Shown: positions 7,721 through 64,000 of the stretch, piece after piece
How positions within the stretch are numbered: the stretch's first letter is position 1
Layout: every line of letters begins with the position of its first letter
Sequence record: NC_070980.1
Length of the DNA stretch: 64,000 bases
DNA from: Escherichia phage vB_EcoP_SU7
Strand: one strand, 5' to 3'
The notes under the pieces: generated by a model
What the model saw: the letters and a program-made list of their open reading frames with translations, nothing else
What the model was told of the DNA's origin: nothing
Database searches by the model: none
Made by a program: the position numbers and the translations under genes

Positions 7721-8752
7721 ATGGCTTATGGAATATGGTGTCAACCTGTAGGACCGGGACCAGCTTCCCCAGCTCCTCTCTTTATTGATAGCGGAAGCAC
7801 TTTTCCTCAAATAAAAAATTCAATAAGTGGGAGTTTCAACTTTAACGGGGCTGGAAGATCTTTTCCTATTAGTGGGTGGGATGGGAGTGGTCAAATAGTG
7901 ATTGTACCAACAGGCTCTCTTTGTTGGCAATGGGAGGTTCCTCCTAATTTAGTTCCTGATGTATATTGTGTCAACAATATCTATGTAGAGAATAACACAT
8001 CATTCAGGGTTACATTAAACCAAAACCCGGGAAGCAACCCCTTGTTTGACTGTGGTTTCAATGTATATCAAATCTACCCAAGAGCTGATAGGAACTATGG
8101 AATAACCTTCTCTAATACAGCTGATTACTTCTCTATCTCAGATGCTGGGATTGTGGGTCAATGTATCTGGGCTTGGCAAGGAACTATAAACAACGCTCTA
8201 CAGATACCTGATATTGGTGGTTTCTATATGCCTAATGCTGTAGTTTTTGCTAACTGGTCTGATGGTGGTGTTGGTTTATCTTATACGTCAGGAGATAGGG
8301 TGATTCGAGTTTATCAAAACAGGTCTTATAACAATGGCAACACTAATGAAGGTGGTTCTGTGTTTGCTAGGGTTGCTGTATTTTGTAATGGTGCTGGGGT
8401 TCCTGAACACAACGGCGGTTTAAATATATACTCTCCCGGAACTACTCAGTGCGTATTCTCTACTTATAGGTCTCCTTTTACAGTAGACACTTTCGTAGGC
8501 TCAGCAGGTGGAAATACTGGCTTAGCTTATCCTATGATTCCTCTGTCTTCTGGAGTTGGAGCTATCAGAGGAAGTGGGAGTGGTTGGTATTATCAACAAA
8601 TGCGTTCTCATACCATGTCAGGGTCTTCAATAGGAACTGGATATGGTAGATATATGTTCCAATGGTCTAACAGTTATGACTTAGGTTCTAATGCTGCTGT
8701 TAATATCTCCATCCCTGTAATCAACGCTGCTAAGATTTTTGCAGGTTTATGA
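7721..8752 (+). CDS. virion structural protein (function unknown)
   Basis: 343-aa ORF tightly coupled to neighbours; Gly/Ser/Asn-rich. Confidence 0.55.
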   Translation: MAYGIWCQPVGPGPASPAPLFIDSGSTFPQIKNSISGSFNFNGAGRSFPISGWDGSGQIVIVPTGSLCWQWEVPPNLVPDVYCVNNIYVENNTSFRVTLNQNPGSNPLFDCGFNVYQIYPRADRNYGITFSNTADYFSISDAGIVGQCIWAWQGTINNALQIPDIGGFYMPNAVVFANWSDGGVGLSYTSGDRVIRVYQNRSYNNGNTNEGGSVFARVAVFCNGAGVPEHNGGLNIYSPGTTQCVFSTYRSPFTVDTFVGSAGGNTGLAYPMIPLSSGVGAIRGSGSGWYYQQMRSHTMSGSSIGTGYGRYMFQWSNSYDLGSNAAVNISIPVINAAKIFAGL

Positions 8753-13284: not shown

Positions 13285-13304
13285 TCTAAGACCTAAGTCC
13301 TATC

Positions 13305-13322
13305 TCTTATAATGTATATAGG
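13305..13322 (+). promoter_or_regulatory. candidate promoter with TAATGTATATAGG motif
   Basis: TTATAATGTATATAGG about 35 nt upstream of the 13355 start; the same core recurs at 23084-23096 (-), 23157-23171 (+) and 35528-35543 (-). Confidence 0.35.
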
Positions 13323-13354
13323 AGGTAGGACATTTTTATTTATAAGGAGACGTT

Positions 13355-16300
13355 ATGGCTAATTTAAAATCGTGGGAAGAAGCTTCCAAAGCTCCTGCGT
13401 ATCTGAATGCCTCTCCAGAGCAACAGGCTCAAATGAGAGAACAATACAAGGCAGCAGGGGGCACTATTCCTGAGACTCAACCACAAGAGCAACCACAACA
13501 AGAAGAACGAGGTGTTATTGGGGAGTTTGCTCAAGGTGTGTCTAACGCTCTTCAATCAGGTGGTGCTAACATTGCAGCTAGTGCTGCTAAAGGTTTAGGT
13601 GGGCTGGTAGAGATTGGTGAAAACCTAACTGGTTCGGAAACAAGCTATGGTAAGCGCATTCAAGAGAACTCTAAGCAATTGCTGGAAGAACGCTTATCCA
13701 AGATAGGAGATGGTTTTGGTAAAACAGCTGGTCAGTATGCTGGTGTTGCTGCTGATATTGGTTTGACAGTTGCAAACCCTGCTGTTGCTGCTGCTGTTAT
13801 CACAGCTCGTGAAACAGGTCGTGCTTATGCTGATCAAACTCCTAAAGAAGATGAAGATAAGTCAATCTTAGATGCTGCTCTTGTTGGTGGTGCTAACTAC
13901 GCTGCTCAGAAGATACTTCCGGGCATGACTGGTACAGCTTCTACTACTCTAGGTCGTGTAGGACAAAGCGTAGCCTCTAACGCGGTTGCTGGTGCTAAGG
14001 GTGGTGCTATTGTTGGTGCTGCTGAAGCTCAGAACAAATATGGAGATGATACTACTCTAGCTAATGTCTTAGAAGGGGCTATTGAAGAAGGTGCACTCGG
14101 TGCCGCTTATGGTGGGGCGATTGGTGGGGTTCATGGGTTAATAAGTCGTCCTAGTCCTCAAGTGTTTGATCGTACTCCTGAGCATGTTAAGACTGACATT
14201 GCTGCTGAAGATGAGGCTATTCGTAAAGCTGCTAACGCTGATGAACTTCGTGAAGCCTATGCTAAAGCTGAGAATGCTAATGCTGCCTCTGCTTTAAACC
14301 TTCTGGATGAAAATGGTTTCCGAATCACAGATGCAGTTGCTATGGACTCTCCTGCTGTTCAACGTATATTAAATACAGATCAAAGTCGTGCAGAGAAGGC
14401 TGCTACGGTTCAGAAAGATAGTTCTAACGTTCCCGGTCTTAATCCTTTAGCTTCTCCTAAGAAGACTCAAGGTAAAGCTTTTGCTGACAATGAGTACAAC
14501 CAGAAACAAGCTGTGGCAATGAAAGATGCAATGGCTGACTACACTAAAGATAACACCAAAGCCCTTACTGATGTTCTAGACAATCTAGACCGAGAGTTAG
14601 TAGCTCTGAGAGCAAGTGGTGATTTTACTGGTAGTGCTATTGACATTAAAAACCGTACTCAAGCTGATCGTGATTTTATTGATGCTTATAAAACTTTTTA
14701 CAGTGAAGCTAATCGTTTCAAAGCTCGTGATGGTGAAGACCTAAACAACTTCATTGATAAAGCTACTCAGTTGCAGAAGCTCTCTGAAAATGTTTCTCCA
14801 GAAATGAAGAAGGCCATTGGTGGATTAAAGAAACTAAAAGGTATGCCTGAAGGTTTTAACCCTATCCAAGATGCTTTCACTCTGAATAATACAGCTAAGT
14901 TCATGAGTAACCAAGACCGTGGTTGGACCTCTCTGACTGATGACGGTTTTCGTGAAGCTCCGGCTCCTGTGTTAGTTAAGAACCCCCTCGGTGCAGCCAA
15001 GTATGTACTTAACCGCTTTACTTCCGATCGTGCTCGTGCTCAACGTGAGAAGCAACAGTCAGCTAATAGTGAAGCTATCCGCTCTTTGGCTAGGGCTGAT
15101 TTAGAAGTACAACGAGCTAGGACTCAGGCTGAAGAAGCAAGAGCAAAAATGGAAGAAGAACCAACCACAGAAGACATCAAATTCCGTACTCAAAATGATG
15201 CACCTTCCGAACCGGTTCGTGAGGAGCCTTCTGCTACTACTGTGACGGAAGAAATTCCTTCCTCTCCAGCTCCAACTGAAACACCTCTTACTGCGAGGGA
15301 TTTGGTTGCTCAAAGACGTGCTCTACAACAAGCAGAACTTAGACGTCAAGAAGCGGAAGCTGCTCAGGCTCAAGAAAGCACTACTCCAGAACCTGAACCA
15401 CAGCAAGAAGCATTGACAGCGAGAGAGCTAGTAGCTCAGCGCAGGGCTGTAGCAGAAGCGAAGAAACGTCAAGAAGCAGAGGAGGCAGAACGTGCCAAAG
15501 AAGCTCCTGAGAAGACCGTAGAGGAACCTCAAGAGAAACCTGAGCCATTACCTGCTCGTGCGCCTAAAGCTCCTGAGAAGGCTCCTGAGCCTGTTAAACC
15601 ATCACTCGGTGTAGAGCGTCTGGCTTCCATGTCAACTGCTGCCCGTCAGGCAACAAAAGATCGTGCTGACCGATTTGCTCGTTCTTTGTATTCGGCTGCT
15701 GCTAAAGCTAAAGCTACTGCGGAAAACTTCCTTTCTTATAAAGGAGACCCTAAAGAGCTTATGCGTCGTATCCGTCAGGAAGACCAAGCAAACAACACAC
15801 AGCGTCATGAAGAGATGGCTAGAAACCAGCTAGCTTCACAGCAAGGTATTGCTTCTGCTAAGTCTCAACATGTTCGTTCTTCTTTTGCTGATTGGGTAAA
15901 AGAGCGTGGATTGCCTTCTGATATTGCTACTAAGGCTTTACGTGCTGAAGAGAAGGGTTTGGGTGGAAACGTCACAAGTCTAGACTCACTGAAACGAAGA
16001 GCTGAGCGTTTATATCAGAAACAGAGAGATGATGAATTTGACCGTCTCTATCGAGAGGCTCTGGAAGAGAATAAAGCTTTTGACAAGAAAGATGCTCCTA
16101 AACTGGTAGATCAGAAGAAAGAGCTTCAGGATGAAATTGGTACACTGCTTGATGCAGAACCGTTACGTCCTGCTCAGAAAGATGCTATGCGTAGGATTAT
16201 GGAAGACTTCGTGGAGAGTAAGTTTAAATCTTCAGAGAGAGCTGGAAGGGTTGAGGCTTTGGAAGTTGGTCAGATGAAGGATGTGTGGGATGGGTTTATT

Positions 16301-17800
16301 AATACCTATAACCGAGAAGTTAACATGTTCAACAAGGCTAACAAGAATTCTCAATACGAAGCAGCAGCTAAACACTTGCAAGCACGTCAAGAACGTCTTG
16401 AGACGCTCCGTAACAGAGCTAAAGCTCGCAGTGATGCTAAGGCAGCCATGGAGGCTGAGAAGCAGTCCTTGGAGGCTATAGCGGCTCAGAAATCCGAGAT
16501 GGAGAAGATGTTCAAAGAGTTGCCTGAAAGTGTCAGAGAAGCTCAGGAAGGTCGTACTTTGAAGCAGCTTGCTGCTCACCACGATAAAAACTCTCCAGTA
16601 CCACCAGAGCGTTTCCGTAGTATTATTGAACGTATTCACAACGCTGAGAGTGATTACCTCGATCGCAAACGTCGTTTGACCGAAGCAGAGGAAGATGCTC
16701 GTGAGGCTAAGTGGAACAGGATGTATGAACAGGCTGAGGAAATGAACCGTAGGTTTGATATTGATTCTAGAGTGAAGAGAGATAAGGCTCTGAAAGAAGC
16801 TCAGGAACGGGAGAATGACCTAATGGCAGTTCAACGTCAACGTGACGACATTCATAAGCGTTTAGTCAACACTCTGGAAGAGAAGGGGGTTTCTAGGGAG
16901 GATGCTGAAGCGTATGCTGGTTCTTATATGGACAATCGGTATGCTTTGTTAGAGAAACCTATGACTCCAGTGGAACATCAGAATGCTCGTGCTCGTATCG
17001 AATCTGACGTAGAGAAGTTTGTTAAGAAGTATGAAACAGCTACTCCAATCGAAAGAGAGATTGCTAAGGCAACTGGTGATGCAGATGGGAAAGCTTCTGA
17101 CCTTGATGCAGAAACAGCAAAAGCTATCGAAGATGCTCGTAAAGTTGATTCTGATTTTAAGAAACTTTTAGATGAAGAGAAAGAAATGGAGAAGATTCGT
17201 TCGGCTCTACCTGAGGATGAAAGATCTCAGGCTAACTCTGATATTCTTGAAAGTATTAAGAAGCAGGAAGATGACTTTGCTAACAAAGCAGAGAAAGCTT
17301 TTATTGAAGGGAAAGACTTGCAGGAGTTGGCGAGTGTTGCAGAGGTTCTAGATAGGGTTCATGGTGCAGATAAGGCTGGTAACAACCGTCGATTTGTGCG
17401 TGCTCTACAGACTGCTGCTGAGAACAAGAAACGTTATGGAGATAATCCAGTGGCTTGGTTTAGTGCTGATGATTATTCTGCTATTGCGAAACTTGGTGCT
17501 GCTTCGGCAGGTGGTAACAAATCTCGAGCACTTGAGAAGATCTTTGGTTCTACAGCAGAACAAGCTAAAGGGAAACTTTTAGGGAGGGATGATGTAGCTA
17601 AGATTAGACGTGTGATTGAAGCGAATCCTAATGCTAAGATTCCTTCTTACAAGACAACTACTCGACAAGAGTATTTACAGTTCTTGGAGAAGTATAATGA
17701 CGAGGGAGAGTTGAAAGTCAAACGTGGTTCTCTGTCTGACAAGTTGGAGAGAAGTAAGCGTCAAGCTAAACTTCGTGTTAGAGTTCGAGCTAAGGAGTAA
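13355..17800 (+). CDS. very large charged coiled-coil protein (internal virion / ejection or tape-measure-like)
   Basis: 1,481 aa, Ala/Glu/Lys/Arg-rich with long helical repeats; last gene of the + module; terminator follows. Confidence 0.7.
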   Translation: MANLKSWEEASKAPAYLNASPEQQAQMREQYKAAGGTIPETQPQEQPQQEERGVIGEFAQGVSNALQSGGANIAASAAKGLGGLVEIGENLTGSETSYGKRIQENSKQLLEERLSKIGDGFGKTAGQYAGVAADIGLTVANPAVAAAVITARETGRAYADQTPKEDEDKSILDAALVGGANYAAQKILPGMTGTASTTLGRVGQSVASNAVAGAKGGAIVGAAEAQNKYGDDTTLANVLEGAIEEGALGAAYGGAIGGVHGLISRPSPQVFDRTPEHVKTDIAAEDEAIRKAANADELREAYAKAENANAASALNLLDENGFRITDAVAMDSPAVQRILNTDQSRAEKAATVQKDSSNVPGLNPLASPKKTQGKAFADNEYNQKQAVAMKDAMADYTKDNTKALTDVLDNLDRELVALRASGDFTGSAIDIKNRTQADRDFIDAYKTFYSEANRFKARDGEDLNNFIDKATQLQKLSENVSPEMKKAIGGLKKLKGMPEGFNPIQDAFTLNNTAKFMSNQDRGWTSLTDDGFREAPAPVLVKNPLGAAKYVLNRFTSDRARAQREKQQSANSEAIRSLARADLEVQRARTQAEEARAKMEEEPTTEDIKFRTQNDAPSEPVREEPSATTVTEEIPSSPAPTETPLTARDLVAQRRALQQAELRRQEAEAAQAQESTTPEPEPQQEALTARELVAQRRAVAEAKKRQEAEEAERAKEAPEKTVEEPQEKPEPLPARAPKAPEKAPEPVKPSLGVERLASMSTAARQATKDRADRFARSLYSAAAKAKATAENFLSYKGDPKELMRRIRQEDQANNTQRHEEMARNQLASQQGIASAKSQHVRSSFADWVKERGLPSDIATKALRAEEKGLGGNVTSLDSLKRRAERLYQKQRDDEFDRLYREALEENKAFDKKDAPKLVDQKKELQDEIGTLLDAEPLRPAQKDAMRRIMEDFVESKFKSSERAGRVEALEVGQMKDVWDGFINTYNREVNMFNKANKNSQYEAAAKHLQARQERLETLRNRAKARSDAKAAMEAEKQSLEAIAAQKSEMEKMFKELPESVREAQEGRTLKQLAAHHDKNSPVPPERFRSIIERIHNAESDYLDRKRRLTEAEEDAREAKWNRMYEQAEEMNRRFDIDSRVKRDKALKEAQERENDLMAVQRQRDDIHKRLVNTLEEKGVSREDAEAYAGSYMDNRYALLEKPMTPVEHQNARARIESDVEKFVKKYETATPIEREIAKATGDADGKASDLDAETAKAIEDARKVDSDFKKLLDEEKEMEKIRSALPEDERSQANSDILESIKKQEDDFANKAEKAFIEGKDLQELASVAEVLDRVHGADKAGNNRRFVRALQTAAENKKRYGDNPVAWFSADDYSAIAKLGAASAGGNKSRALEKIFGSTAEQAKGKLLGRDDVAKIRRVIEANPNAKIPSYKTTTRQEYLQFLEKYNDEGELKVKRGSLSDKLERSKRQAKLRVRVRAKE

Positions 17801-18028: not shown

Positions 18029-18328
18029 CTAGATTAAATCATAATACTTAATAATATCAGAGAGTTTGAACTCTCGAATGTCGTTCTTGTCGTTGTCCCA
18101 AGCGGTCATTATCCAACAAGGTTTGCCCCCATTATGATAACGGGAAGAAGCAACTGAGGTTCGTAAAGGAATAACGGAGCGGTCTGCAATCTCGCCTCTC
18201 CAATTACGATAGCTAAAGCGAAGAACTTGTTTCGTAGATACTTGATCATGTGTGTTTTCCTTATTCATAGATTCAAAGACTTCCTTCTCTTCAGGAGTCT
18301 CTAGATTTTTTAAATTCGCGTCTTGCAT
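18029..18328 (-). CDS. hypothetical protein
   Basis: ORF on the replication strand; start placed at the internal ATG (MQDANL…); start uncertain. Confidence 0.4.
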   Translation of the reverse strand: MQDANLKNLETPEEKEVFESMNKENTHDQVSTKQVLRFSYRNWRGEIADRSVIPLRTSVASSRYHNGGKPCWIMTAWDNDKNDIREFKLSDIIKYYDLI

Positions 18329-18695
18329 CGTTTTCCTCTTTAGTCTTAATCTTATGGCAAGACTCTTTACATAAGACTTGAAAACCATCTTTCTCAACTA
18401 AAGCCCTCTCGATGATTTCATCCCAAGTAGCTTCATGGTCCACTGGAACAATAGGCTCGATGTGGTCGACAGCCACCTCTTTCAGAGGAGAGTCATTACC
18501 GCACATGGCACACTTGTAGTGCATTGCCAGCTTGCCAGTCTTAGGGTTGATTTTACGTTCTGTCTGAGCTTCTTTGAGAGCATCAAACATAGGCTTCCAC
18601 TTTCTAGTCAGAGAACGAATCCCTGACTTAATGAAGGAGTTATAACGTGCTTCAGTCCACTGACCAGAGCATCTTGTCTTCTCAGCTTTCGCCAT
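18291..18695 (-). CDS. HNH endonuclease
   Basis: CAMCGND…VDHIEPIV…CH, an HNH zinc-finger nuclease motif. Confidence 0.55.
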   Translation of the reverse strand: MAKAEKTRCSGQWTEARYNSFIKSGIRSLTRKWKPMFDALKEAQTERKINPKTGKLAMHYKCAMCGNDSPLKEVAVDHIEPIVPVDHEATWDEIIERALVEKDGFQVLCKESCHKIKTKEENDARREFKKSRDS

Positions 18696-18886: not shown

Positions 18887-19705
18887 TTACCAAGTTTTAT
18901 CTAACCATGACCAATCAAAGAGGTCACCTTCAGCTTGTCCAACGAAGAGCAATCGAGCATTTTCTAACATCTTAGCTTCTGCTTCTTCCTCGAACCTTTT
19001 ATAGTATTCCATTCGTATAATATGATAAAGAGTCCACTTATCGAATACCTTCTCAATAAGTTTGATTGCAGCCTTACTACCAATGCCTTTACGACGCATT
19101 ACTAGATTGCCACCCCACATCATTTCAACCTTCTCACCACATCCGGGAATGTTATCTGTGCTATCCCCGATCAGCATTTGGTAGAAGAAGTTCTGCCATG
19201 CTACTTCCTCTGATACATAATGAGGGGGTACTTCTTTCTGTCTCTCCCCGCAAGCCCAACGGTAATGCCATCCGGGGGTGATTAACAAATCTTTATCACG
19301 GGTGCAAATGATAGTGTTCTTATCACGTCTCTGTCTTTCAGCTAAGGCATCATCTGCCTCTCTCCCAAAAACTTCTACGTATTCGTAATTCTCTTTAATG
19401 TAGTCACTAACATTTTGCCAGTGGTGAGGTCTTTCTCCCGGTGGTCGATTAGCTTTATAGCCTTGCTGCTTAGCAATATCAAACCGAAAATTACCACCTT
19501 CGCTGAAGTAAAAGATTGTTTTCTCGCAACCAGACCTTGCAATGATTACATCTATTTTATGTTGAAGTCGTTCAATCAAGAATCCATAATCAACTGGAAC
19601 ACGACCTGTGTCTAGAAAAGGATGCTCTTGTGTAAGAGCACCGACTTCATATCGCAGAACATCTCCGTCCACAATTGCTACTTCAGGATAGATTACATCA
19701 GACAT
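18887..19705 (-). CDS. 5'-3' exonuclease / flap endonuclease (FEN, T5 D15 / T4 RNase H family)
   Basis: H3TH motif LIGDSTDNIPGCGEK…KGIGSKAA; ATG at 19705 lies 2 nt after the upstream gene stop. Confidence 0.8.
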   Translation of the reverse strand: MSDVIYPEVAIVDGDVLRYEVGALTQEHPFLDTGRVPVDYGFLIERLQHKIDVIIARSGCEKTIFYFSEGGNFRFDIAKQQGYKANRPPGERPHHWQNVSDYIKENYEYVEVFGREADDALAERQRRDKNTIICTRDKDLLITPGWHYRWACGERQKEVPPHYVSEEVAWQNFFYQMLIGDSTDNIPGCGEKVEMMWGGNLVMRRKGIGSKAAIKLIEKVFDKWTLYHIIRMEYYKRFEEEAEAKMLENARLLFVGQAEGDLFDWSWLDKTW

Positions 19706-20294
19706 AGAGACCTCTCCGTGTCTCTTCAATAATCCACTCTAAATCCTCAACTGCCTCTTCTACAGAACGGTCATTAAAGAGGAGGTAGGTTGGTAGGTTT
19801 GTTCCTTCAATATAAGAACGGGAGTCCCCTTCAAAGGAGCAGCCATCGCGGAGAACCTGAACCACTCGAACATGGAAGTGTTTCTCTAGTTCTTCAACTT
19901 CTGCTTTAAAACCACCATCAGAGAAGACGATAACATCATTCTGTGATGGGATATGTTGTTGGATACTGCTAACAGCAAGTTTACCCATGCAGGTCTCACC
20001 AAACATAGGCTTCAGGTAATTCTCGCTAGTTGCAATCATCAAGTCTCGAACTGACTTACCGCCCCATTCAGGACGGACAAGTTCTTTCCACTCACGGTCG
20101 TTGTACAGCTCCATGAACTCGTAAAGAGGTAGACCTAATGCAGCAGCAGCCACTCGATACATAGGCTCCTTAAAAGCCCTTACATGCGGCCTAAACTCAG
20201 TGTTACCAGTGGTCTTCTCTAACCAAGCACTGGCGATTGTATCTTTACCGCAACCCGGAGGTCCATTTAGAATTACTACTAATGGTTTACTCAT
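19698..20294 (-). CDS. P-loop kinase, deoxynucleoside monophosphate kinase-like
   Basis: Walker A NGPPGCGKDT; size and layout resemble phage dNMP kinases (recalled, not searched). Confidence 0.45.
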   Translation of the reverse strand: MSKPLVVILNGPPGCGKDTIASAWLEKTTGNTEFRPHVRAFKEPMYRVAAAALGLPLYEFMELYNDREWKELVRPEWGGKSVRDLMIATSENYLKPMFGETCMGKLAVSSIQQHIPSQNDVIVFSDGGFKAEVEELEKHFHVRVVQVLRDGCSFEGDSRSYIEGTNLPTYLLFNDRSVEEAVEDLEWIIEETRRGLYV

Positions 20295-20944
20295 TATTGA
20301 ATCATCCCTTGAAGATCTTCTTTATCAAAGTGCTTCTCTACTACCGCTTCATACAGATCACGATTCTCCGAATAACGGCGATAGAAGGTTCCGTGTGAAA
20401 TTCCCAGCTCTTGCTGGATGTGATCATGAGGTATACCGAGGAAGAGCATTGAGAACATACTTGCCATCTTGCGGTTTTCCATAATATCACTTAGGTCCTG
20501 GAAGAAGAAAAAGATTCTAGATTCCAAGAATGGGTCTCCAGTAGAATCATGCTTATCCATAGCAATCTCTAAAGGACTTTCCCATGAATTCATCTCGGGA
20601 GGTCTAAACATATCAGCCTCTGGAATAGAATAGATACGTCTGTCTCCAACTGTCTGACGATTAGAACGAATCGACCAGATGATATTCTTCACACGATAAG
20701 TCATGTGTTCAATATCTTTTTCATCGGTAAGCAATAGTTCTTCTTGCTTTGCAAATACAAAACGCCAAGAGTTCAGTAACACTTCCTGAGCAACATCCTC
20801 TGCTTCGTGATAATCTTTAATGTCGTACATAAAATACTTATGCACAACTTTCCAATTCTCTCGATAGAATTCATCGAAGGTTGGGTAGTACTTAATAGGT
20901 ATGCCATGAATACGATAGCGTGTGGGTGTTGTCTTTTTCTTCAT
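20294..20944 (-). CDS. phage-encoded sigma factor-like protein
   Basis: Region 2-like [13 protein letters not shown] and region 4-like [15 protein letters not shown]. Confidence 0.5.
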
Positions 20945-20968
20945 AAGTCATCCTTAACTTACTTTACA

Positions 20969-21193
20969 TTAAACTACACAGAATAAATACATTGCTGTTT
21001 CAGGGGAAGGTATGTGGTCACTAGGATATCTAACCCTAATCCACTCATCATCTTCTGCTACATAATAAGCCCAATAAGACCCATTTTCATTAATAAAGAA
21101 CTTGAAGGTACAACCAAAGATTTGGTTATTGTGTTCCCATACTGCATGAAACTGAGTAACACCTTCTGGTATTGTAAGTTCCGCTCTGATCAT
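20969..21193 (-). CDS. hypothetical protein
   Basis: 74-aa ORF in operon context. Confidence 0.4.
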   Translation of the reverse strand: MIRAELTIPEGVTQFHAVWEHNNQIFGCTFKFFINENGSYWAYYVAEDDEWIRVRYPSDHIPSPETAMYLFCVV

Positions 21194-21456
21194 TGTATTC
21201 CTCTCTCCTTTAGAGCTTTAAGCAAACCGTTGTGGTTAGCGGCACAGGTTGTATAAGTGTCCTGATACCACTCGAGTGTTGTTGCAAGTGCTACTCCCTG
21301 TCCACTCTGAAGTAAAGGGAGGTCTACATCACATTCAGCTTTTAGGTTTGTTGGTAAGGGCATTAGCTGCCTGCTGTTGTCGCTCGTTGAACAAGCCATC
21401 AAACTAGAAGCGAGAAAAATCACCAAACAACTCTTTTGCTTTTTCTTTGTAAGCAT
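21190..21456 (-). CDS. lipoprotein, candidate outer-membrane spanin
   Basis: Signal peptide with lipobox LMAC; short mature part with Pro and Cys; lies downstream of the candidate inner-membrane spanin. Confidence 0.4.
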   Translation of the reverse strand: MLTKKKQKSCLVIFLASSLMACSTSDNSRQLMPLPTNLKAECDVDLPLLQSGQGVALATTLEWYQDTYTTCAANHNGLLKALKERGIQ

Positions 21457-21790
21457 TTTCTGCACCCTCTTGAGTGCTGTGATAACCAAGCCAAATTACT
21501 TTGTTTTGATATCCGATGCGAGCACTCCATTTGTTAATATCCGACCTGTACCCTACACCTTTTATTCCAGTTAAAGAGTTCTTTTGAACTATTTTGTTGG
21601 CATTATTAAGGACAGGTGTTGCTCTTCTTAGATTGCTCCAAGAATTATTAGATTTGTCTAAATCTTTATGGTCTATTTGAAAATCAGGAATCTCTCCAGT
21701 TTTGATATACCAAGCAATTCTATGAGCTTTGTACTGTTTATATTGATAGGTAATCACTGTATAGCCATCTGTGGCTTTACAACCTGCCAC
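21404..21790 (-). CDS. HNH homing endonuclease with AP2-like DNA-binding domain
   Basis: IDHKDLDKSNNSWSNLR (HNH) and GIKGVGYRSDINKWSARIGY…GYHSTQEGAENAY (AP2-like). Confidence 0.6.
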   Translation of the reverse strand: MAGCKATDGYTVITYQYKQYKAHRIAWYIKTGEIPDFQIDHKDLDKSNNSWSNLRRATPVLNNANKIVQKNSLTGIKGVGYRSDINKWSARIGYQNKVIWLGYHSTQEGAENAYKEKAKELFGDFSRF

Positions 21791-21885
21791 CTTTCCAGCG
21801 AATCTTGAATTCCACTGAGCGCTCTTATCCTCAGAATGTTTCCAGTAGAGAAGACCAGAAACCTCATCGTAAGATAGATATTTAA

Positions 21886-22227
21886 CTAATTCTTTAATTT
21901 CAGTGCCTCCGCTGCTTGTTGCTGTCGTTCATTGAAAAGTCCTACATACTCATCACTAGCACACACATTGTAAAAAACTGGCTTAGTCTTTTCATAATGC
22001 ATCTCTTTGTAAATAGTTTCCGTGTTCTTCTTCCAGTTAGATAAACCAGTCAGAACTTTCTGAGCCACTTCATCAGCAGCCTTAGCTCTCTCAACCTCAA
22101 TCTCTTGCTGTTTCTTCTCATGGTCAAGAGCATTACTATTACTTCTGTATTGCTCAAACTTGACACCACCAAAGAAAATAATAGCTGTGAAAATAAGAAA
22201 GCCTATATTGTTTTGAAGCTTTTCCAT
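21886..22227 (-). CDS. type II membrane coiled-coil protein, candidate inner-membrane spanin
   Basis: N-terminal TM (IGFLIFTAIIFFGGV) then charged coiled coil; ATG at 22227. Confidence 0.4.
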   Translation of the reverse strand: MEKLQNNIGFLIFTAIIFFGGVKFEQYRSNSNALDHEKKQQEIEVERAKAADEVAQKVLTGLSNWKKNTETIYKEMHYEKTKPVFYNVCASDEYVGLFNERQQQAAEALKLKN

Positions 22228-22240
22228 TTTAACTCCAACG

Positions 22241-22264
22241 AAAAAAGCCACCCGAAGGTGGCTA
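22241..22264 (-). terminator. rho-independent terminator (minus strand)
   Basis: GCCACC-CGAA-GGTGGC stem with U-run on the minus-strand transcript, after the 22287 gene end. Confidence 0.5.
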
Positions 22265-22286: not shown

Positions 22287-23027
22287 TTAGAAAGGGCTGT
22301 CATCTTCTTCAAAGGTAGACTGCGGCTCTTCGTTAATAGTAGGGATACTTGGAGTAGCATCTTTCTGTTCAATATCAGAAGCTTTAGTAACTTCACGACC
22401 AGCCAGAGGGATGTTCTTAGCATCATTAGCTTGGGTCAGAAGATTACGTTGGAATGGGAAGATTGCTTGATAAGCAGCCAAGTTAGCATCAGTCTCAGCA
22501 TATGGTTCGAAGAAGATCAACTCACTACGAGGGGCACCTACAGAATCACGATATTTGGTAGGGATTGGAGTGATACTCTTAATGGAGTTTTTCTTCTCAC
22601 CAGCTTTGTTTACATAGGAATTAACCAGAATGTTAACAGGCTGACCTAGCAGCATATCTTTAAACCAACCCAAATCACCTTTCAGTGCTTGAACACTTGG
22701 GTCGATCATTTTGATCAGATTCAGAATACCAGAGTTCTTAGCTCGTGGGTTTACGTCGAAAGTTTTAAACTGGCAAGCAGGACGAGGGTCCAGAGGTTTG
22801 CCTTCATTATCAGTCCCTGTTGCATCCACGCCAATCAGTTCAAAAGCCAAGTCCATACGGAAAGCTGGGTTCTTAGGAGTAACTGCTTTAGTCTTAGGGT
22901 CAATCCAAGGGTCACGATTGTGAACACCTAAACCTACAACACGAACAATACGTGCTTCGTACTCACCATCAGGGATTACATCGTAGTTGGATTTACGGGA
23001 TACAGACAGTTCAGGGATCATAGACAT
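22287..23027 (-). CDS. putative single-stranded DNA-binding protein
   Basis: 246 aa ending in an acidic tail …TFEEDDSPF, as in SSB and T7 gp2.5 C-termini; first gene after a 415-bp intergenic region. Confidence 0.35.
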   Translation of the reverse strand: MSMIPELSVSRKSNYDVIPDGEYEARIVRVVGLGVHNRDPWIDPKTKAVTPKNPAFRMDLAFELIGVDATGTDNEGKPLDPRPACQFKTFDVNPRAKNSGILNLIKMIDPSVQALKGDLGWFKDMLLGQPVNILVNSYVNKAGEKKNSIKSITPIPTKYRDSVGAPRSELIFFEPYAETDANLAAYQAIFPFQRNLLTQANDAKNIPLAGREVTKASDIEQKDATPSIPTINEEPQSTFEEDDSPF

Positions 23028-23083
23028 ATTAATATTTCCTTATATAAATTTAAGATTGTTGCTCTCTTTGAGCGGTTTGTATA

Positions 23084-23096
23084 CTATATACATTAC
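23084..23096 (-). promoter_or_regulatory. candidate promoter motif GTAATGTATATAG (minus strand)
   Basis: About 57 nt upstream of the 23027 start; same core as 13310. Confidence 0.35.
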
Positions 23097-23156
23097 ACTT
23101 ATACAGATAAGGTTCTATTATACTATAACCTTTTTGGTAGTAGATAATGACAAGTA

Positions 23157-23171
23157 GTAATGTATATATGG
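23157..23171 (+). promoter_or_regulatory. second copy of the TAATGTATATA motif, opposite orientation
   Basis: GTAATGTATATATGG on the plus strand inside the 23028-23442 intergenic region. Confidence 0.25.
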
Positions 23172-23442
23172 TATAGCTAGTAAAGCTATTGCAGGCTTGT
23201 ATATTGGGCAATCATTGTAACCCTTGCAAGTACCGAAGGGCAGGAGACACCTGCGAGATAAAAATAGAGAATTAAGGAAATCCTTGATTTAGGTTGTAGG
23301 GACTCCTAGGGACTTTGATTCTCTATTTAAAAGAATATTAATTACTTACTACCTAAATAATTAACTAACTTACTTAAACCAAACTCAAGAATAATAGATA
23401 AAAAGATTATTCCTAAGAAAGCTAAAAAGTAAAGGATATAAG

Positions 23443-23607
23443 TTACCATTCAAGTAAACCTTTAAAGTTAGTTTGTTCTACTATCCTCTGATAACGAAGA
23501 TTAGAATCAGCTTGTTTCTTTAACATCTCATTATATTTATCTCTGATAGGGTCTTTATAAACTACAGGTTCTTTAAATAACGAGATCTTGTTCTTTTCTT
23601 CTTTCAT
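23443..23607 (-). CDS. small hypothetical protein
   Basis: ORF 23443-23691 trimmed to an internal ATG to reduce overlap with the phosphatase gene; start uncertain. Confidence 0.35.
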   Translation of the reverse strand: MKEEKNKISLFKEPVVYKDPIRDKYNEMLKKQADSNLRYQRIVEQTNFKGLLEW

Positions 23608-24076
23608 CGAAAACCTTCCTAATCTCTTGCAGAGAAACAGCTTTATAATTAATTTGCTCCATTGATGTACAGAAATATCTCCAATCATCAATTACATGAT
23701 TATGGGTATGAGCATAAATATTAAACTTCCCTCTCATTTCATCAGTGTGAATAGGAATATGAGTTACCCAAAACTCTTTATATTTATAATCACCAGAGAT
23801 TCTACGGAAGACTTTCATCATATCAGGGAGAAGTTCTAACCTGTCATGGTTTCCTAAGACTAGATGCTTCTCTCCTTTTACTTCAGCGATGATATCAAGG
23901 GCATACTTTTCAAACACCCAATCACCGGTAAAGAAAGTTTTATCACGTTTAGTAACATGGTCAAACGCTGCTAAGATAGCTTTGTCGTGTTCTTCAATAC
24001 TACTAAACCTCTTCCTAAAGCTACAGATGTTACGATGGCCTAGGTGACCATCACCTGCAAAATAAACTTCAGCCAT
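23573..24076 (-). CDS. calcineurin-like metallophosphoesterase (Ser/Thr phosphatase-like)
   Basis: GDGHLGH…GDWV…GNHD…HTHNH metallophosphatase motifs. Confidence 0.7.
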   Translation of the reverse strand: MAEVYFAGDGHLGHRNICSFRKRFSSIEEHDKAILAAFDHVTKRDKTFFTGDWVFEKYALDIIAEVKGEKHLVLGNHDRLELLPDMMKVFRRISGDYKYKEFWVTHIPIHTDEMRGKFNIYAHTHNHVIDDWRYFCTSMEQINYKAVSLQEIRKVFDERRKEQDLVI

Positions 24077-29915: not shown

Positions 29916-30233
29916 TCAACTTGAGCTTAAAGCTCCTTTGCGACCGCCTGCTGATTTTCCAGCACGATCTCCACTTTTGCCGCCGTTCGAGCGATTTCGA
30001 GAGACTGATTCAACACGTAAGTTACTTGACGCATTAGAACCTCCCGACTTGATTGATCGTTTGTGTCCAACATCTTTACCTCGGACAGCAGCTTTTCCAT
30101 CGCGCTTTTCAACGATGCGACGTGCACGGTGGCGCTGAGCATCTCCGCTCTTGCTCCCAATTCCCGTTTCACCGCGCTTGATCGCAGTCCTTCTTTCTTG
30201 AGCATAGTCTCTTTTTCCTACATGATCTGCCAT
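29916..30233 (-). CDS. highly basic low-complexity protein
   Basis: 105 aa, Arg/Lys/Gly/Ser-rich; codon choice fits this frame better than two overlapping alternatives. Confidence 0.4.
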   Translation of the reverse strand: MADHVGKRDYAQERRTAIKRGETGIGSKSGDAQRHRARRIVEKRDGKAAVRGKDVGHKRSIKSGGSNASSNLRVESVSRNRSNGGKSGDRAGKSAGGRKGALSSS

Positions 30234-30562
30234 TAGATTTCTCCTGATTCTCTTTGGTTAAAGGTGTGGATGGCGTGGCAATTAGCACACAATATCCTGC
30301 ACTTCCTCATCTCTTCTTTTATTTGAGATAAAGATCTGGTGTGCCCTTTGGAGAGTTCGAATGACTTAGTTAATGGATTTAAATGATCAAACTGAAGAGC
30401 AGATGCGTGGCCTTTAAAACCACATTCAGAGCACCCGTAGAATGTTTTAACTCTACGAATAAAAGCTAGTTGCCTAAACCTTCTTCTCTCATTGTCTGCT
30501 TTTCTCTTATCTCTATTTCCTGGGTCGGCCCATCTACACGAGTCATTGCAAAACCTCTGCAT
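30233..30562 (-). CDS. HNH endonuclease
   Basis: CSECGFKGHASALQFDHLNP…CANCHAIH. Confidence 0.55.
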   Translation of the reverse strand: MQRFCNDSCRWADPGNRDKRKADNERRRFRQLAFIRRVKTFYGCSECGFKGHASALQFDHLNPLTKSFELSKGHTRSLSQIKEEMRKCRILCANCHAIHTFNQRESGEI

Positions 30563-30795
30563 TATATACTTCGTTACAAATGGTACCTTACAGGTTTCAC
30601 ATTCCTTGTGGTATGTTGCTATTTTGACCCCCTACTCAGTGTAAACAAAACCTTCTTTATCGGCTGACTCTTTTGCAAAAGTTTTTGCATCTTCAAGAGT
30701 GTCAAAAGTCTCAGTGATATAAACTTCTCGAGGCCCGTTTTTGTATACTACAGAAAACTTACCACCCTTAAGTTCTATTGGTTTCACAACAGTAC

Positions 30796-35185: not shown

Positions 35186-35516
35186 CCCCTTCTAAGTTAG
35201 TTGAATTAGCTACATTACGAGCAATGTTATCCATGACCTGCTGTGTAATAACAATGCAATTCTGAGGGTCTACTGATTTAGAACGCCCCATCTCAGGGTC
35301 ATAGACTTTGACTCGCTTGGCTGTTGAGCCAGTAACTTGCAACACTTTGAGAAGATAGCCTTGGTTTCCAATAGACCATGCAACAACATCACGATTCTTG
35401 ATATAACGACCAAGCATGTCACGATGATAGAACTGCTGCATAACTTTAGCTTTGCTAATCTCTTCAGATGGCGGGGCCACTTTACTCAAATCTAACATAA
35501 CTCTCTCCTGTTTCAT
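35169..35516 (-). CDS. hypothetical protein
   Basis: 115-aa ORF preceded by an intergenic promoter-like motif. Confidence 0.45.
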   Translation of the reverse strand: MKQERVMLDLSKVAPPSEEISKAKVMQQFYHRDMLGRYIKNRDVVAWSIGNQGYLLKVLQVTGSTAKRVKVYDPEMGRSKSVDPQNCIVITQQVMDNIARNVANSTNLEGDAPNA

Positions 35517-35527
35517 ACAATATTCTT

Positions 35528-35543
35528 ATACTGTATATACATT
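35528..35543 (-). promoter_or_regulatory. candidate promoter motif AATGTATATACAG (minus strand)
   Basis: In the 35517-35568 intergenic gap; same TGTATATA core as 13310 and 23084. Confidence 0.3.
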
Positions 35544-35568
35544 TGAGAGTTATCATATCTACTACCAA

Positions 35569-36524: not shown

Positions 36525-38008
36525 GAGTTTCTGTTTCCTTGTACAGATGATGCCAAATTATTAATCATATTACGAGCTGTTTCACGAGATAGTGTAACAC
36601 CTGCTAGGTTGTTGTGAAGCTCACCAGATAGCTCACGAGCTGCTGCTCGTAGTTCTGCACCAAGTGCAGTGTCAGAGTGAGCTAGACCATTACGACGACC
36701 AACAGGTCGAGGAGCTTCGTTAGCGTCATTAGCTAATGATGCAAAACCAATATGAGCAGCTTCACGAGCCGCTATAGCTGATACTCGATCTTCTGTAGGG
36801 GTTGGCAAATCACCAACTTCTACACGTTCAATATCACTAGCACGTAGACCCTGAACAACAGAGCTTACTGTTTCCCATGAACGACGAGAACGCTGCAAAT
36901 CATCCATTGACGGAGATGGAATAGGACGAGCAGTTCCTCCTTGGACATGCCATGTACGAGTATCCATTCCAGAAGAGTGTGCACTACCAAAACTACCAGT
37001 GAAAGTATCACGAGGTCTTTCATGAGGTTGTACGTTATACCCTACAACACCCCCTCGAACAGTTCGAGAAGTTTCTTCATTAAAAGCTTGAAGATCTCGT
37101 CTGTTAGTTCCCGGAGTCCAAGGTCGTGTAATTGCTTCAGCACCTATAGTGGTTAATCCACTAGACCATTCTGTCTGTAGGTTAACTTCCTCGTCCAGAT
37201 AACTACGACCCCTTTCCTGAGGAATGTTTAATGTAGTTTCCATCATCTTCAGGGTATAATGACGACGCTGATTCTGATATAAATTTACACCAGCCATAGG
37301 CCCAACTAAATCACTGATCAGATGAACTTCTGGTTCACCAAAAGCTCCCATTGCAAGGTGCATGTACTCAGTAGAACTGCTGTAAACTGCAACTGTTGCT
37401 TCAGGCCACTTTTTGTGGACATACTTCATGTCACGACTTGTCACCACAGGGATATCATTAGTATATGCCATTGCAAACATACCTTCGTTCGACACATACA
37501 TATCATCGAGAGTCATAAACCCTTGACAAATCATAGGGAAGCGACCGCTCAGAGTATCCATATCCAGAGGGAGGTTAATCATCATCTGAATCTTCACTTC
37601 GTCAATCTCCACTTCCAAAATCTCTTGGAAAGTGAAAAGTGCTTCAGCGTAGGTTGTTCCACTGATAGGCTGAACTAGTCGAGATGTAACTTGAAGCCCC
37701 TTACTCTCTGTCCAAGACAAGAAGTTGTCAAGGAACAGTGCAGCATTACTTACGTTAGCAGGGCTGTTTTCCTGACGAGTGTTCCAACGGAATCCTCCTT
37801 GAACTAGGAAGATATCAACATCATTCGGAGTTCGATTTTGGAAGAACGTATCACGGATAGCACCACCTGCAATGACAGGATAGATACCATCAGGGACTAC
37901 GTTATCTCTGATCAGATTGCGAATCAGATCAAGCCCTACGCTGAGGGCTTCTCCTTCTTGAAGGTTTAATTCAGACAATGGAATCTTAATCATTTCTACA
38001 TTTTCCAA
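36521..38008 (-). CDS. nucleotidyltransferase-domain protein (tRNA-NT / poly(A) polymerase-like head) with long C-terminal extension
   Basis: [24 protein letters not shown] matches the GG.[VI]RD…D.D head motif; C-terminal ~250 aa Ala/Arg/Ser-rich. Confidence 0.4.
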
Positions 38009-41054: not shown

Positions 41055-41240
41055 TTATTCTACTTCGAAGTGTTTGATCACACCAGTCAGTACATCAGAT
41101 TGGAATGTACCCACTAGCTCTGTACCTCGGAAGAAGTTGACATTTGTTCCAAGTGATTCAAAGCGATCTGCTTGAATGTCCAGAGATTGAATATTTCCTT
41201 CTGCTGACATTGTACGAAACATGATTGTGTATTTATTCAC
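41055..41240 (-). CDS. small hypothetical protein
   Basis: 61-aa ORF. Confidence 0.35.
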   Translation of the reverse strand: MNKYTIMFRTMSAEGNIQSLDIQADRFESLGTNVNFFRGTELVGTFQSDVLTGVIKHFEVE

Positions 41241-41479
41241 AGACTTGTTACTCCCTTATCTGCTTGTGCAATTGCGATGATACGCTCAGCACATTCCATT
41301 GAATATTTATCACCTCGTTTGAGGAAGGTGATGATTGCAGAGAACTGATTACCAATCATTCTCTTATTTGTGATACCGAACTCTTCACAGAGTTGGTTGA
41401 TAGCTTTACGAGAGCCTACAATAAGAGGCTCTTTTTCTTCGGTCATTCCACGGCTGATCAAATCTTCGATAGACAACAT
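41237..41479 (-). CDS. small hypothetical protein
   Basis: 80-aa ORF coupled to neighbours. Confidence 0.4.
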   Translation of the reverse strand: MLSIEDLISRGMTEEKEPLIVGSRKAINQLCEEFGITNKRMIGNQFSAIITFLKRGDKYSMECAERIIAIAQADKGVTSL

Positions 41480-54422: not shown

Positions 54423-54498
54423 TTGGTGCACCCTACAGGATTCGAACCTGTAACCAACGACTTAGAAGGTCGCTGCTCTGTCCATTGAGCTAAGGGTG
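54423..54498 (-). tRNA. tRNA-Arg (anticodon UCU)
   Basis: Minus-strand read GCACCCT-TA-GCTC…GAGC-A-GCGAC-CUUCUAA-GUCGU…ACAGG-UUCGAAU-CCUGU-AGGGUGC-A-CCA folds as a canonical cloverleaf with encoded CCA. Confidence 0.85.
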
Positions 54499-54508
54499 CT
54501 GGATTTGT

Positions 54509-59893: not shown

Positions 59894-60703
59894 CTTTCAA
59901 TTGTAAGGGCGCTATTGCCCCGCTCTCTATGAGCTTTTTAAGTCACTATTAACTTAACTATAAACGCTCACTACTAAACGCTTATAGGTAAGTGGGGCGG
60001 TCTTATCAGGAGTTAACCTTGCCGCCCCCTTATCCGTGATGTTTCATCTGGTATCTTTAATTAGTCGCTATAAACGAAGCCGACCTGATAGCGATGATCA
60101 ATCATCACAATAAGGCAGTGCGTCCGACACTATTTAATTACTTTATCGTAACCGTCGGCAATATCGTCTACTTTGCTTTCGCTCCCGCCTATCCTTTTGT
60201 ACTAACTCTCAATCGCTAACCATCGCCCACTACGGGAGGTTATTGCGAAAGAGTCATTAGCCGTCTAATACATTGACGTTTTATATCTTTCAGCAGGTTT
60301 ACTACATAAACTGATTATGTACGCCATCAATAGTGGCCTCAAATCATTCACATCGTAAACGTTCACACTAAACCTTATTGTTAAATAGCAATTTGCCACT
60401 TTTTAACCACTCCCCGCCGCTCGCAATTGAGCGTTAATTCTTCGGACTTGTCTACCCTGATTAACTTCTTTCACTGTAGCGCCTTGTTAGCGATGACCGC
60501 CGCTACCCTTAACCGTGGGCGATTAGCTTAAGTCTTTGCGTGCACTCAATGAATCCGTCTATCAGTGGTGACGTTTCCAGTAAGGGATTGTAAGATTGTT
60601 TTCTCTGATAGTTTAGAGAATCTCACACCGTTTTATCTGGTATGCTTTCCGATGGTTATTATCATCAAGCATATTCAACCGATATAGGAGAATGTTTAAA
60701 TTA

Positions 60704-61489
60704 TTAAAGAGCGGTAAATCTATCAGTGTGCTTTCTCACACTATGCAACTGTTAGCCGTTGTTACGCTTTTCTTAAGCGGTGATTTGCTTAAGTGATGTG
60801 CTCATTATGAATCATGCTGTTTTAGCTGTCAACCACTTTTTTAAATCTTTTCTCATCTATTCTTTCGAATGACTAGTTAATCACGCATTGGATTAACAAG
60901 ATTGTAAGCGGTTGCGCTTAACTTTCTGATTCATATTTTTAAAGAGCGGTGTTTCTTACTGCTTAGTGAACATTCTAACAGAACGTTTCACCTTGTCAAC
61001 TCTTTTTATCGTCTTCTTTTTATTCTCTTCCCTTATCTCGCGTGAATCTTTGCGAAAGGGCAAGACGATAAATTGTTAAAGAGCGGGGCACTAAGTGCCG
61101 GATGTTTTATGTCATCACTGACCGTGTGAACATCTTATCATAATGATTCGATGTGTCAACAACTATTTTTCGATTAATGCATCTTGATAAACTAGCGACC
61201 GTTAAGGCCGCTAACCTTACCTTAGTTCATACGTTTAAAGGTTAAATCTTTATCCGTACTTACCAGCGATAACACCGCAATAGCTTTGCCTTTATCGGCA
61301 TCGGCTACCATCTCTTTTGCCTGCTGTAATGTACTACCGACTATTCTCATAATCATGTTAGTAACGTTAATGCTAGTGCAAGTGATTTGCGTGTCTTTGC
61401 TTGAGAAGGTATACACGTTCATTGATAAATCCTCATTATGGCATGGTTGGGAGTTTATCAAGATACACTAATCGAATTATTAAAGAGCA
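60704..61489. repeat. array of four TTAAAGAGC(G/A)(G/A) motifs, each followed by a short hairpin
   Basis: TTAAAGAGCGG at 60704, 60949 and 61076; TTAAAGAGCAA at 61479; each preceded by AT-rich sequence; lies within and just past an ORF-free region. Confidence 0.5.
61222..61461 (-). CDS. small hypothetical protein
   Basis: 79-aa ORF. Confidence 0.35.
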   Translation of the reverse strand: MINSQPCHNEDLSMNVYTFSSKDTQITCTSINVTNMIMRIVGSTLQQAKEMVADADKGKAIAVLSLVSTDKDLTFKRMN

Positions 61490-63222: not shown

Positions 63223-63499
63223 TATTACTACTCCTGATAAATGAAAGATTGTTTGTCGTGTGTGGTTACTTAGGCTGATCAACCTTCACTACTCACTATC
63301 ACCGCTAACTACTTTACATCACTGCTTCATTAACGATAATTCAAACTACGATTGCAACTATATATTAAAGGAAAAACTTGTCAACCACTTATTTTCAAAC
63401 TGTTTAGATTTCTAATCACAACTCATTGAATCTAAAAGAAATTTAATTTACTAAACTTTCTTGTTCAGAGATATAGCTTACTACTTAATAACACTTATA

Positions 63500-63610
63500 G
63501 AACGGGTAGCAGACCAACGGGATAGATGCATGGGTAAGACGTGCCGCATAGGTTAGCCAATGGGTAAGAAGCCTAACGGGGAAGGGGAAACGGGTAGGGT
63601 ATAATGTAAG
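63500..63610. repeat. cluster of about six degenerate A(C/T)GGGTA(A)G repeats ending in a TATAAT-containing motif
   Basis: ACGGGTAG, ACGGGATAG, ATGGGTAAG (x2), ACGGGGAAGG, ACGGGTAGGGTATAATGTAAG at 11-28 bp spacing in an ORF-free region. Confidence 0.4.
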
Positions 63611-64000
63611 TTAGTTACAGGTAACAGGTCAGACCATGCGGTAATAAATTACCAGTCAAAAATCTACTCATCAAAAGAAAAAAGAAACGCTGAAAAAGAA
63701 AAGAATAAAAGAAAGAATAAAAATAATAACTAAAGTAAACAACTACCAATTCTCATTGCTACGCAATGGACTAAAACCAGTCTAATGATACATACATCAA
63801 TAATCCACTCATGAAACATTAACATAAGTTATTACATTCAAACGTGGGGAAGTGTTAGCAACAGTATAGTTTACATAGGTTATCATTAATGTTCTTACTA
63901 TTAATACCGGTTAGTTATAGTCACTATCAGTATGCCTGTACAGTGCTAGCCTTTCATCCCTTCTCAACATGAGTAAGAGAAATACGGGTAGGAAATCACT

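Follow-up and report, generated by a model that had tools for sequence, protein, structure and literature searches.

The sigma factor gene and its protein

The stretch of DNA analysed in this study, referred to below as the window, comprises 64,000 nucleotides of Escherichia phage vB_EcoP_SU7 (sequence record NC_070980.1), and the gene in question lies on its minus strand at 20294..20944, where it is predicted to encode a sigma factor of 216 amino acids, the ortholog of gp36 of phage phiEco32. The identification draws on the open reading frame (ORF), homology, contact residues, and a structural model with a fold search. The ORF runs from an ATG at 20944 to a stop codon at 20294 and fills exactly the coordinates at which an earlier sequence-only reading had placed a sigma-factor-like protein. 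That proposal is borne out, as the protein aligns with phiEco32 gp36 over its full length and shows 79% identity over 216 columns; what sets it apart from gp36 includes a two-residue insertion in the linker and the substitution M138L. A Shine-Dalgarno sequence, AAGGA at 20951..20955 on the minus strand, stands 7 nt upstream of the ATG and is kept in relatives. Tblastn of the protein finds 97 records, with 100% identity in phage Bas86, 97.7% in ECBP2 and about 80% in the phiEco32 clade, and the identical Bas86 protein carries the annotation 'RNA polymerase sigma factor'. Judged by its sequence, the window is a phiEco32-like E. coli podophage (Gordonclarkvirinae), and its phiEco32-like relatives are the Gordonclarkvirinae with the genera Kuravirus, Suseptimavirus and Nieuwekanaalvirus. 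For positions 19500-22000, the best megablast relatives are PAS59 (97.7% nucleotide identity) and Bas86 (96.4%) among 95 phage records, nearly all of them Escherichia phages.

With domain limits taken from the structural study of gp36 (PMC12276001) and moved by the two-residue insertion, the protein is laid out as a sigma-2-like domain at residues ~1-103, a long linker and a sigma-4-like domain at residues ~140-216, an architecture of two domains that has neither region 1.1 nor region 3 within its 216 residues. PHROG 1740, 'RNA polymerase sigma factor', is matched at E 9.1e-43, and chain F of PDB entry 9M7Y, 'RNA polymerase ECF sigma factor' (ECF, extracytoplasmic function), is matched over the full length at E 2.8e-117. 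The gp36 family comprises 20 clusters at 90% identity and extends down to 45% identity. When a family profile built from 20 sequences was searched against 1.84 billion representative proteins, four family clusters were found at E<1e-10, followed by 16 proteins at E 5.5e-7 to 9e-4, which are 99-234 amino acids long, most of them 184-199. Pfam analysis of ten of the matches shows that the two closest have no Pfam domain and that the other eight all have Sigma70_r2, seven of these eight together with Sigma70_r4_2 and five with Sigma70_ECF. Two ECF proteins align with the family over both domains (profile positions 23-196 and 22-162). Against the PDB, the same profile gives weak and consistent matches to ECF sigma factors on the N-terminal domain (SigW, SigK, SigL, SigE and RpoE).

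Structural modelling leads in the same direction. An AlphaFold model made from the single sequence had a mean predicted local distance difference test score (pLDDT) of 40.8 and was discarded; the model made with the 20-sequence alignment, which was used instead, has a mean pLDDT of 76.4, with two helical domains at 80-92 and a linker of low confidence at residues 99-135. A Foldseek search with this model retrieves 9m7y_F at E 1.2e-19 and after it almost only ECF sigma factors (M. tuberculosis SigE, SigL and SigH; AlgU, SigW, SigK, BldN and E. coli sigma-E), in alignments of 172-203 columns that cover both domains but have weak E-values and low TM-scores (template modelling scores). The region 2-like and region 4-like segments that had been read from the letters are therefore both real, as PHROG 1740, 9M7Y_F, the family profile and Foldseek all indicate, although region 4 is undetectable with curated sequence models. 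Membership of the sigma-70 family rests on similarity at the profile level, on structural similarity and on the published structure, and in fold the protein is ECF-like (group 4).

The C-terminal domain also attracts weak helix-turn-helix matches at residues 148-201, to DUF1492 (E 0.028) and TetR_N (E 0.065) in Pfam, and TetR-family chains occur among the weak PDB matches. These matches raise the question of whether the protein might be an ordinary helix-turn-helix regulator, TetR-like or DUF1492-like, and not an RNA polymerase subunit at all. However, both Pfam matches are sub-threshold and span only about 40 residues, whereas the chain matched over the full length was solved within an RNA polymerase open complex, as its sigma subunit, and every search matches the N-terminal domain to ECF sigma region 2. 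Co-purification with core polymerase and sigma-dependent initiation have also already been reported for the ortholog, and we regard such a regulator as extremely improbable.

The structure behind 9M7Y allows a comparison residue by residue. It was determined by cryo-electron microscopy (cryo-EM) and contains E. coli RNA polymerase, phiEco32 gp36, the phage protein gp79 and promoter P68 in a gp79-dependent open complex (Xu et al. 2025, PMC12276001). In this complex, gp36 contacts the clamp helices through the acidic residues D44, E47, E49, D50 and E54, the -10 region and the fork junction through E79, H80, Y83, R84, W90, S91, S94 and N95, the flap tip helix through M138, I142, F166, L167 and F204, and the -35 region through Y186 and R187 (PMC12276001). 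The window protein is identical to gp36 at 19 of these 20 positions and has a conservative change at the remaining one (M138 to L): all five clamp-helix contacts, all eight -10 and fork contacts and both -35 contacts are kept, as are four of the five flap-tip contacts. Most of the contact residues are invariant across the 20-sequence family alignment, and the residues of the gp79-binding groove, F146, M164, L167 and I169, are identical in the window protein. These contacts also bear on the idea that the protein could be a decoy or inhibitor of host sigma factors, binding RNA polymerase without directing initiation. Nothing specific speaks for this idea, though phages do encode such inhibitors and the partner gp79 has that very activity. 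The full conservation of the DNA-contact residues, the cognate promoters kept in front of late structural genes and the initiation of transcription by the ortholog in vitro all argue against a decoy, which appears exceedingly unlikely.

Promoters, partner protein and proposed function

Six gp36-dependent promoters are known in phiEco32, located upstream of genes 6, 13, 26, 40, 58 and 68 (PMC8948821). Their consensus is tAATGTAtA, and transcription starts 6-8 bp downstream of it (PMC8948821, PMC12276001); our scan of phiEco32 finds the element at exactly the six published places. Both experiment and the solved structure show that gp36 redirects E. coli RNA polymerase to TAATGTATA promoters (PMC12276001). 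The sequence-only reading had singled out TAATGTATATA as a candidate phage promoter motif, and this motif turns out to be the published gp36 consensus; the SU10 paper gives that consensus as tAATGTATAtA (PMC4281155), which is the 11-mer of the reading itself. The related claim that a phage sigma factor implies a promoter class of its own is supported by the ortholog, which transcribes middle and late promoters (PMC12276001, PMC8948821).

The positions of P6 and P13 would fall upstream of the window start, and four promoters are expected inside the window. The P26 ortholog is a putative late promoter with TAATGTATATA at 13310..13320 on the plus strand, with a predicted start at ~13325-13327, and would drive the gene at 13355..17800 (1481 amino acids). 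Only a few bases set it apart from phiEco32 P26 between -38 and the ATG. The P40 ortholog, a putative middle promoter, has TAATGTATATA at 23085..23095 on the minus strand and a predicted start at ~23079-23081, from which it would drive the gene at 22287..23027; P40 appears in Table S3 of PMC8948821, and the TAATGTATA at this position is invariant in 14 phages. The P68 ortholog, likewise of the middle class, occupies 35534..35566 on the minus strand and consists of GGTAGTAGATA at 35556-35566 and AAATGTATATA at 35534-35544, with a predicted start at ~35528-35530 and a downstream gene that probably starts at 35498. It has the same a-variant (AAATGTATATA) as phiEco32 P68. P68 is the promoter of the cryo-EM structure, in which the gp36 C-terminal domain contacts -37G and -34A (PMC12276001), and both of these bases are present in the P68 ortholog of the window.

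By count alone, the motif evidence is weak. Exact TAATGTATATA occurs three times in the window (13310 plus, 23085 minus and 23158 plus), and AAATGTATATA is found at 35534 on the minus strand. With one mismatch or fewer, TAATGTATATA gives 5 matches against 1.35 expected, a number reached in 1 of 100 shuffles, and the exact 9-mer gives 3 against 0.63 expected (reached in 2 of 100 shuffles), which is a mild enrichment. Four of the six AATGTATA 8-mers are in truly intergenic DNA, to which about 10% of the window belongs once the gene map is corrected with annotation. The sites are convincing because all four are intergenic and three of them stand at positions orthologous to mapped phiEco32 promoters. 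Two copies of CAATGTATA, at 8059 and 11744 on the plus strand, are inside late genes and were treated as chance. As a separate observation, TAAGACCTA at -38 to -30 is common to the late promoters P13 and P26 (window 13287-13295, plus strand; phiEco32 9078 and 25991, plus strand). The window has 4 copies of this 9-mer (0.73 expected, shuffle maximum 5) and phiEco32 has 7; the other copies have no AATGTA downstream.

We also considered an autoregulatory promoter for the sigma gene. The candidate, TAATGTAAA at 20963-20971 on the minus strand, lies 19 nt upstream of the sigma ATG and overlaps the stop codon of a 74-aa ORF (20969..21193, minus strand). It was rejected and is probably a chance match: PAS59 has TAATATAAA there, without the -11 G that E79 and H80 contact, more distant relatives are unrelated at this position, and one-mismatch matches number 22 in comparison with 18 expected by chance.

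The partner of gp36 is encoded in the window as well. An ortholog of phiEco32 gp79, 80 amino acids long, is found at 41237..41479 on the minus strand (tblastn 76% identity, E 2.5e-40), between the orthologs of genes 78 and 80. Its contact residues differ from those of phiEco32 gp79 by L6I, V10I, L29I and W36F, and the others, R26 and R68 included, are identical. In phiEco32, gp79 drives region 4 of sigma-70 out of the RNA channel and stabilizes the gp36 C-terminal domain; it stimulates P26 four-fold and P68 three-fold, and it shuts off sigma-70 and sigma-S transcription (PMC12276001).

In our judgment, there is a probability of about 0.95 that this gene supplies the phage with its own two-domain ECF-like sigma factor, orthologous to phiEco32 gp36 and reading tAATGTAtA promoters. 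Its binding to RNA polymerase, its promoter specificity and its timing are features that we infer from gp36, which is reported to associate with E. coli RNA polymerase in infected cells and to form a holoenzyme with the core enzyme in vitro (PMC12276001, PMC8948821). If the window protein behaves as its ortholog does, it would be made in mid-infection and would replace sigma-70 on the host core RNA polymerase, with the N-terminal sigma-2-like domain binding the clamp helices and the C-terminal sigma-4-like domain binding the flap tip helix. The resulting holoenzyme would recognize one strong element, tAATGTAtA at about -15 to -7 (AATGTA at -14 to -9), and would start transcription 6-8 bp downstream. 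AATGTA would be read partly as double-stranded DNA (-14 to -12), with unwinding from -11. The promoters read in the window would be those at 13310 (plus), 23095 (minus) and 35544 (minus). Together with gp79, the holoenzyme would transcribe the middle genes and the late structural genes, and gp79 would shut off transcription by sigma-70 and sigma-S.

How the sigma gene itself would first be transcribed can be considered from its surroundings. In phage SU10, a sigma-70-like promoter is reported to lie inside gene 37 (PMC4281155); this promoter has no counterpart in the window because gene 37 is replaced by the 74-aa ORF. First transcription is likely to occur by read-through from upstream units, a route suggested because a terminator-like hairpin follows gene 40 at 22263-22246. 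This strong hairpin, AGCCACCTTCGGGTGGCT followed by TTTTTT (22246-22263, minus strand), stands directly after the gene 40 ortholog, at a place where a terminator is annotated in phage Paul, and it would restrict how much transcription from P40 reads through toward the sigma gene.

Several observations weigh against the proposed function. Pfam detects Sigma70_r2 (PF04542) at residues 26-61 with E 0.011 and 15.9 bits, under the cut-off of 24, and its scan of the protein gives no region 4 match (PF08281 or PF04545). Eighteen NCBIfam models match at E<=10, nearly all of them of ECF-type sigma factors and at residues ~20-63, but all far under their cut-offs; TIGR02937 (sigma70-ECF), for example, covers residues 23-191 with 18.6 bits in comparison with a cut-off of 42.9. 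Family-level and fold searches reach true ECF sigma factors, whereas the thresholds of the curated Pfam and NCBIfam models are not attained, and the two results that would have spoken against the sequence-only reading, an absence of core binding and of profile similarity, are both contradicted for the ortholog and the family. The gene upstream of sigma also differs from that of phiEco32, as the 74-aa ORF, which has no Pfam match, stands there in place of macro-domain gene 37. Finally, P58 is absent from the window, with no minus-strand AATGTA between 30233 and 35211.

This last difference from phiEco32 can be located precisely. The gene 58 ortholog is present at 29919-30233 on the minus strand with 93% identity, and an HNH endonuclease gene (Pfam HNH; 30233..30562, minus strand) abuts it where phiEco32 has gene 59 and the P58 promoter. 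AATGTG at 30598-30603, upstream of the HNH gene, is the sole candidate for a displaced P58 and was not counted. The loss of the gene 58 promoter beside an inserted HNH endonuclease gene is a detail of the lineage that is useful for annotation. It could also be a sign that the protein, although a member of the gp36 family, has drifted in specificity and reads a motif other than tAATGTAtA, given that 21% of its residues differ from gp36 and that a distant relative, gp47 of phage 7-11, reads a different, bipartite motif (PMC8948821). However, the ten residues reported to be in contact with promoter bases or with the fork junction are all as in gp36, and three orthologous positions keep the motif unchanged, with no variation at P40 among 14 phages. 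A drifted specificity is very unlikely in our view. Measured against phiEco32 by its sequence features, the protein is a gp36-family member on every feature tested except for one absent promoter of the four expected.

A conserved non-coding stretch and the gene neighbourhood

Close to the P40 ortholog lies a second promoter-like site of the gp36 type, on the opposite strand. It occupies 23136..23168 on the plus strand and consists of GGTAGTAGATA at 23136-23146 and TAATGTATATA at 23158-23168, with a predicted start at ~23173-23175; its phiEco32 counterpart is at 36682-36712 (plus strand, element at 36704). The spacing is as in P68, and the site is directed away from gene 40, opposite to every gene around it. 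It is not among the six published gp36 promoters (PMC8948821). The spacer between the gene 40 and gene 41 orthologs, 314 bp at 23028-23341, shows 84-99% nucleotide identity in all 97 related records, most of which are only 60-80% identical in the search covering the sigma gene and its neighbours. Across 14 aligned phages, neither the plus-strand TAATGTATATA nor a 12-nt box lying between the two promoters varies, even with diverged flanks (MN05, ECBP2). Read on the plus strand, this box is TGGTAGTAGATA at -38 to -27, the same in sequence and spacing as upstream of P68. The 11-mer GGTAGTAGATA (-37 to -27) occurs twice in the window and twice in the phiEco32 genome, only at the plus-strand site and at P68, and the bipartite pattern is found once, in the same place, in each of 13 relatives.

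The plus-strand site is followed by a highly conserved non-coding stretch at 23172..23335 (plus strand), which ends just before the stop codon of the gene 41 ortholog (23342..23449, minus strand). In the 14 phages, the alignment downstream of the site has about 95 columns that are almost invariant. No ATG ORF is present on the plus strand of this stretch, and a 53-aa TTG ORF at 23050..23211 is considered spurious, the region being intergenic in annotated relatives. The predicted fold of the stretch has -47.7 kcal/mol on the plus strand (z -2.8) and -36.4 on the minus strand (z -2.1), and the consensus fold has -36.2 in comparison with -26.9, figures to be read with the caution that a conserved core cannot show covariation and that related sequences inflate such statistics. 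A hairpin right after the predicted start shows compensatory changes in two pairs (CG/AU/UA and UA/GC), and several G-U pairs and U-G/U-A switches keep pairing on the plus strand only. Rfam gives no match at E<=1 for positions 22900-23700.

Tentatively, the plus-strand site could be a seventh gp36-dependent promoter that makes a structured non-coding RNA of at least ~160 nt and fires against the surrounding genes, a reading to which we give somewhat less than even odds. Such an RNA could have a regulatory role as an antisense transcript, or it could serve DNA replication as a primer or R-loop. Promoter-dependent replication origins exist in T4 and T7 and offer an analogy for the latter. Another possibility is that the structure terminates minus-strand transcription after gene 41, because a long stem on that strand is followed by TTTTT. 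As a whole, the evidence on the plus-strand element is suggestive only. As an undescribed promoter of the gp36 type the site may be a new observation; if confirmed, it would bring a non-coding transcript or an origin into a model of phage transcription control that is already well studied. For annotation, it is in any case a useful lineage detail that a promoter-like site on the opposite strand is invariant and faces an ultra-conserved non-coding element.

The wider neighbourhood of the sigma gene combines shared and exchanged genes. Genes in the window run on the plus strand before ~18 kb and on the minus strand from there on, and the order exonuclease (gp33), deoxynucleoside monophosphate (dNMP) kinase (gp34), sigma (gp36) is common to the window and phiEco32. 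A dNMP-kinase-like ORF at 19698..20294 on the minus strand is the next gene after sigma and overlaps the sigma stop by 1 nt; unlike in phiEco32, it follows sigma directly, without an ortholog of gene 35 (GTP-binding). An annotated HNH homing endonuclease gene is located near the sigma gene at 18291..18695 (minus strand). A 128-aa ORF at 21404..21790 (minus strand) breaks up the spanin region; in Bas86, the annotation of this region gives the spanin in two joined pieces on either side of an HNH gene. On this gene content, the surroundings of the sigma gene are mosaic relative to phiEco32.

Elsewhere in the window, a tRNA-Arg with anticodon TCT is found at 54424-54499 on the minus strand, as is also annotated in phiEco32; at gathering thresholds, Rfam finds one tRNA and nothing else in the whole window. 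Near the right end, 59894-61221 and 63283-64000 are free of gene-strand ORFs that reach 45 aa, and these ORF-poor stretches are possibly an early promoter or regulatory region of the phage.

Comparison with known systems

The sigma factor, its consensus, gp79 and the structure of the initiation complex are already known from publications of 2008-2025, and the identical protein in GenBank is annotated as a sigma factor. The main value of this analysis is one of validation: a reading of raw sequence found a sigma factor that is very divergent and is missed by the curated Pfam and NCBIfam models, together with its true promoter motif. The closest known system is that of phiEco32 gp36, whose neighbourhood, contact residues for RNA polymerase and DNA, gp79 partner and promoter element at P26, P40 and P68 are all as in the window.

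A second phage system, gp47 of Salmonella phage 7-11 (SaPh711_gp47), resembles that of the window in having a phage sigma factor at the syntenic position of a phiEco32-like genome, and it directs E. coli or Salmonella core RNA polymerase to late promoters (PMC8948821). It differs in being only about 15% identical to gp36 and in recognizing a bipartite GTAAtg-(16)-aCTA motif, and phage 7-11 lacks a gp79 homologue, a middle class and host shut-off (PMC8948821). In sequence searches with the window protein, 7-11 gp47 was not recovered.

Among bacterial proteins, the group 4 (ECF) sigma factors, such as E. coli sigma-E and M. tuberculosis SigE, SigH and SigL, are the best match of both the family profile and the predicted fold and have the same build of about 200 residues with sigma-2, linker and sigma-4, but they are remote from the window protein, with 11-21% identity in structural alignments. 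A co-encoded anti-sigma factor is typical of the ECF group, although it does not strictly define it. The ORFs that flank the sigma gene in the window have a weak dNMP-kinase-like match and no Pfam match, respectively, and no systematic search for an anti-sigma factor was made. In contrast to ECF systems, the gp36 promoter is dominated by one -10-like element, and regulation is by gp79, a co-activator, in place of an anti-sigma factor. The C-terminal domain of gp36 resembles sigma-4; compared with ECF factors, the first helix of gp36 is rotated by about 70 degrees, sigma-4 helix 4 is short and the flap tip helix is bound in another orientation (PMC12276001).

The authors of the gp36 structure compared gp36 and gp79 with AsiA and MotA of phage T4 (PMC12276001). 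These T4 proteins follow the same logic of a switch from early to middle or late transcription, but AsiA and MotA remodel sigma-70 instead of replacing it. The same switch logic is also found with the phage sigma factors T4 gp55 and SPO1 gp28, which are unrelated or only distantly related in sequence.

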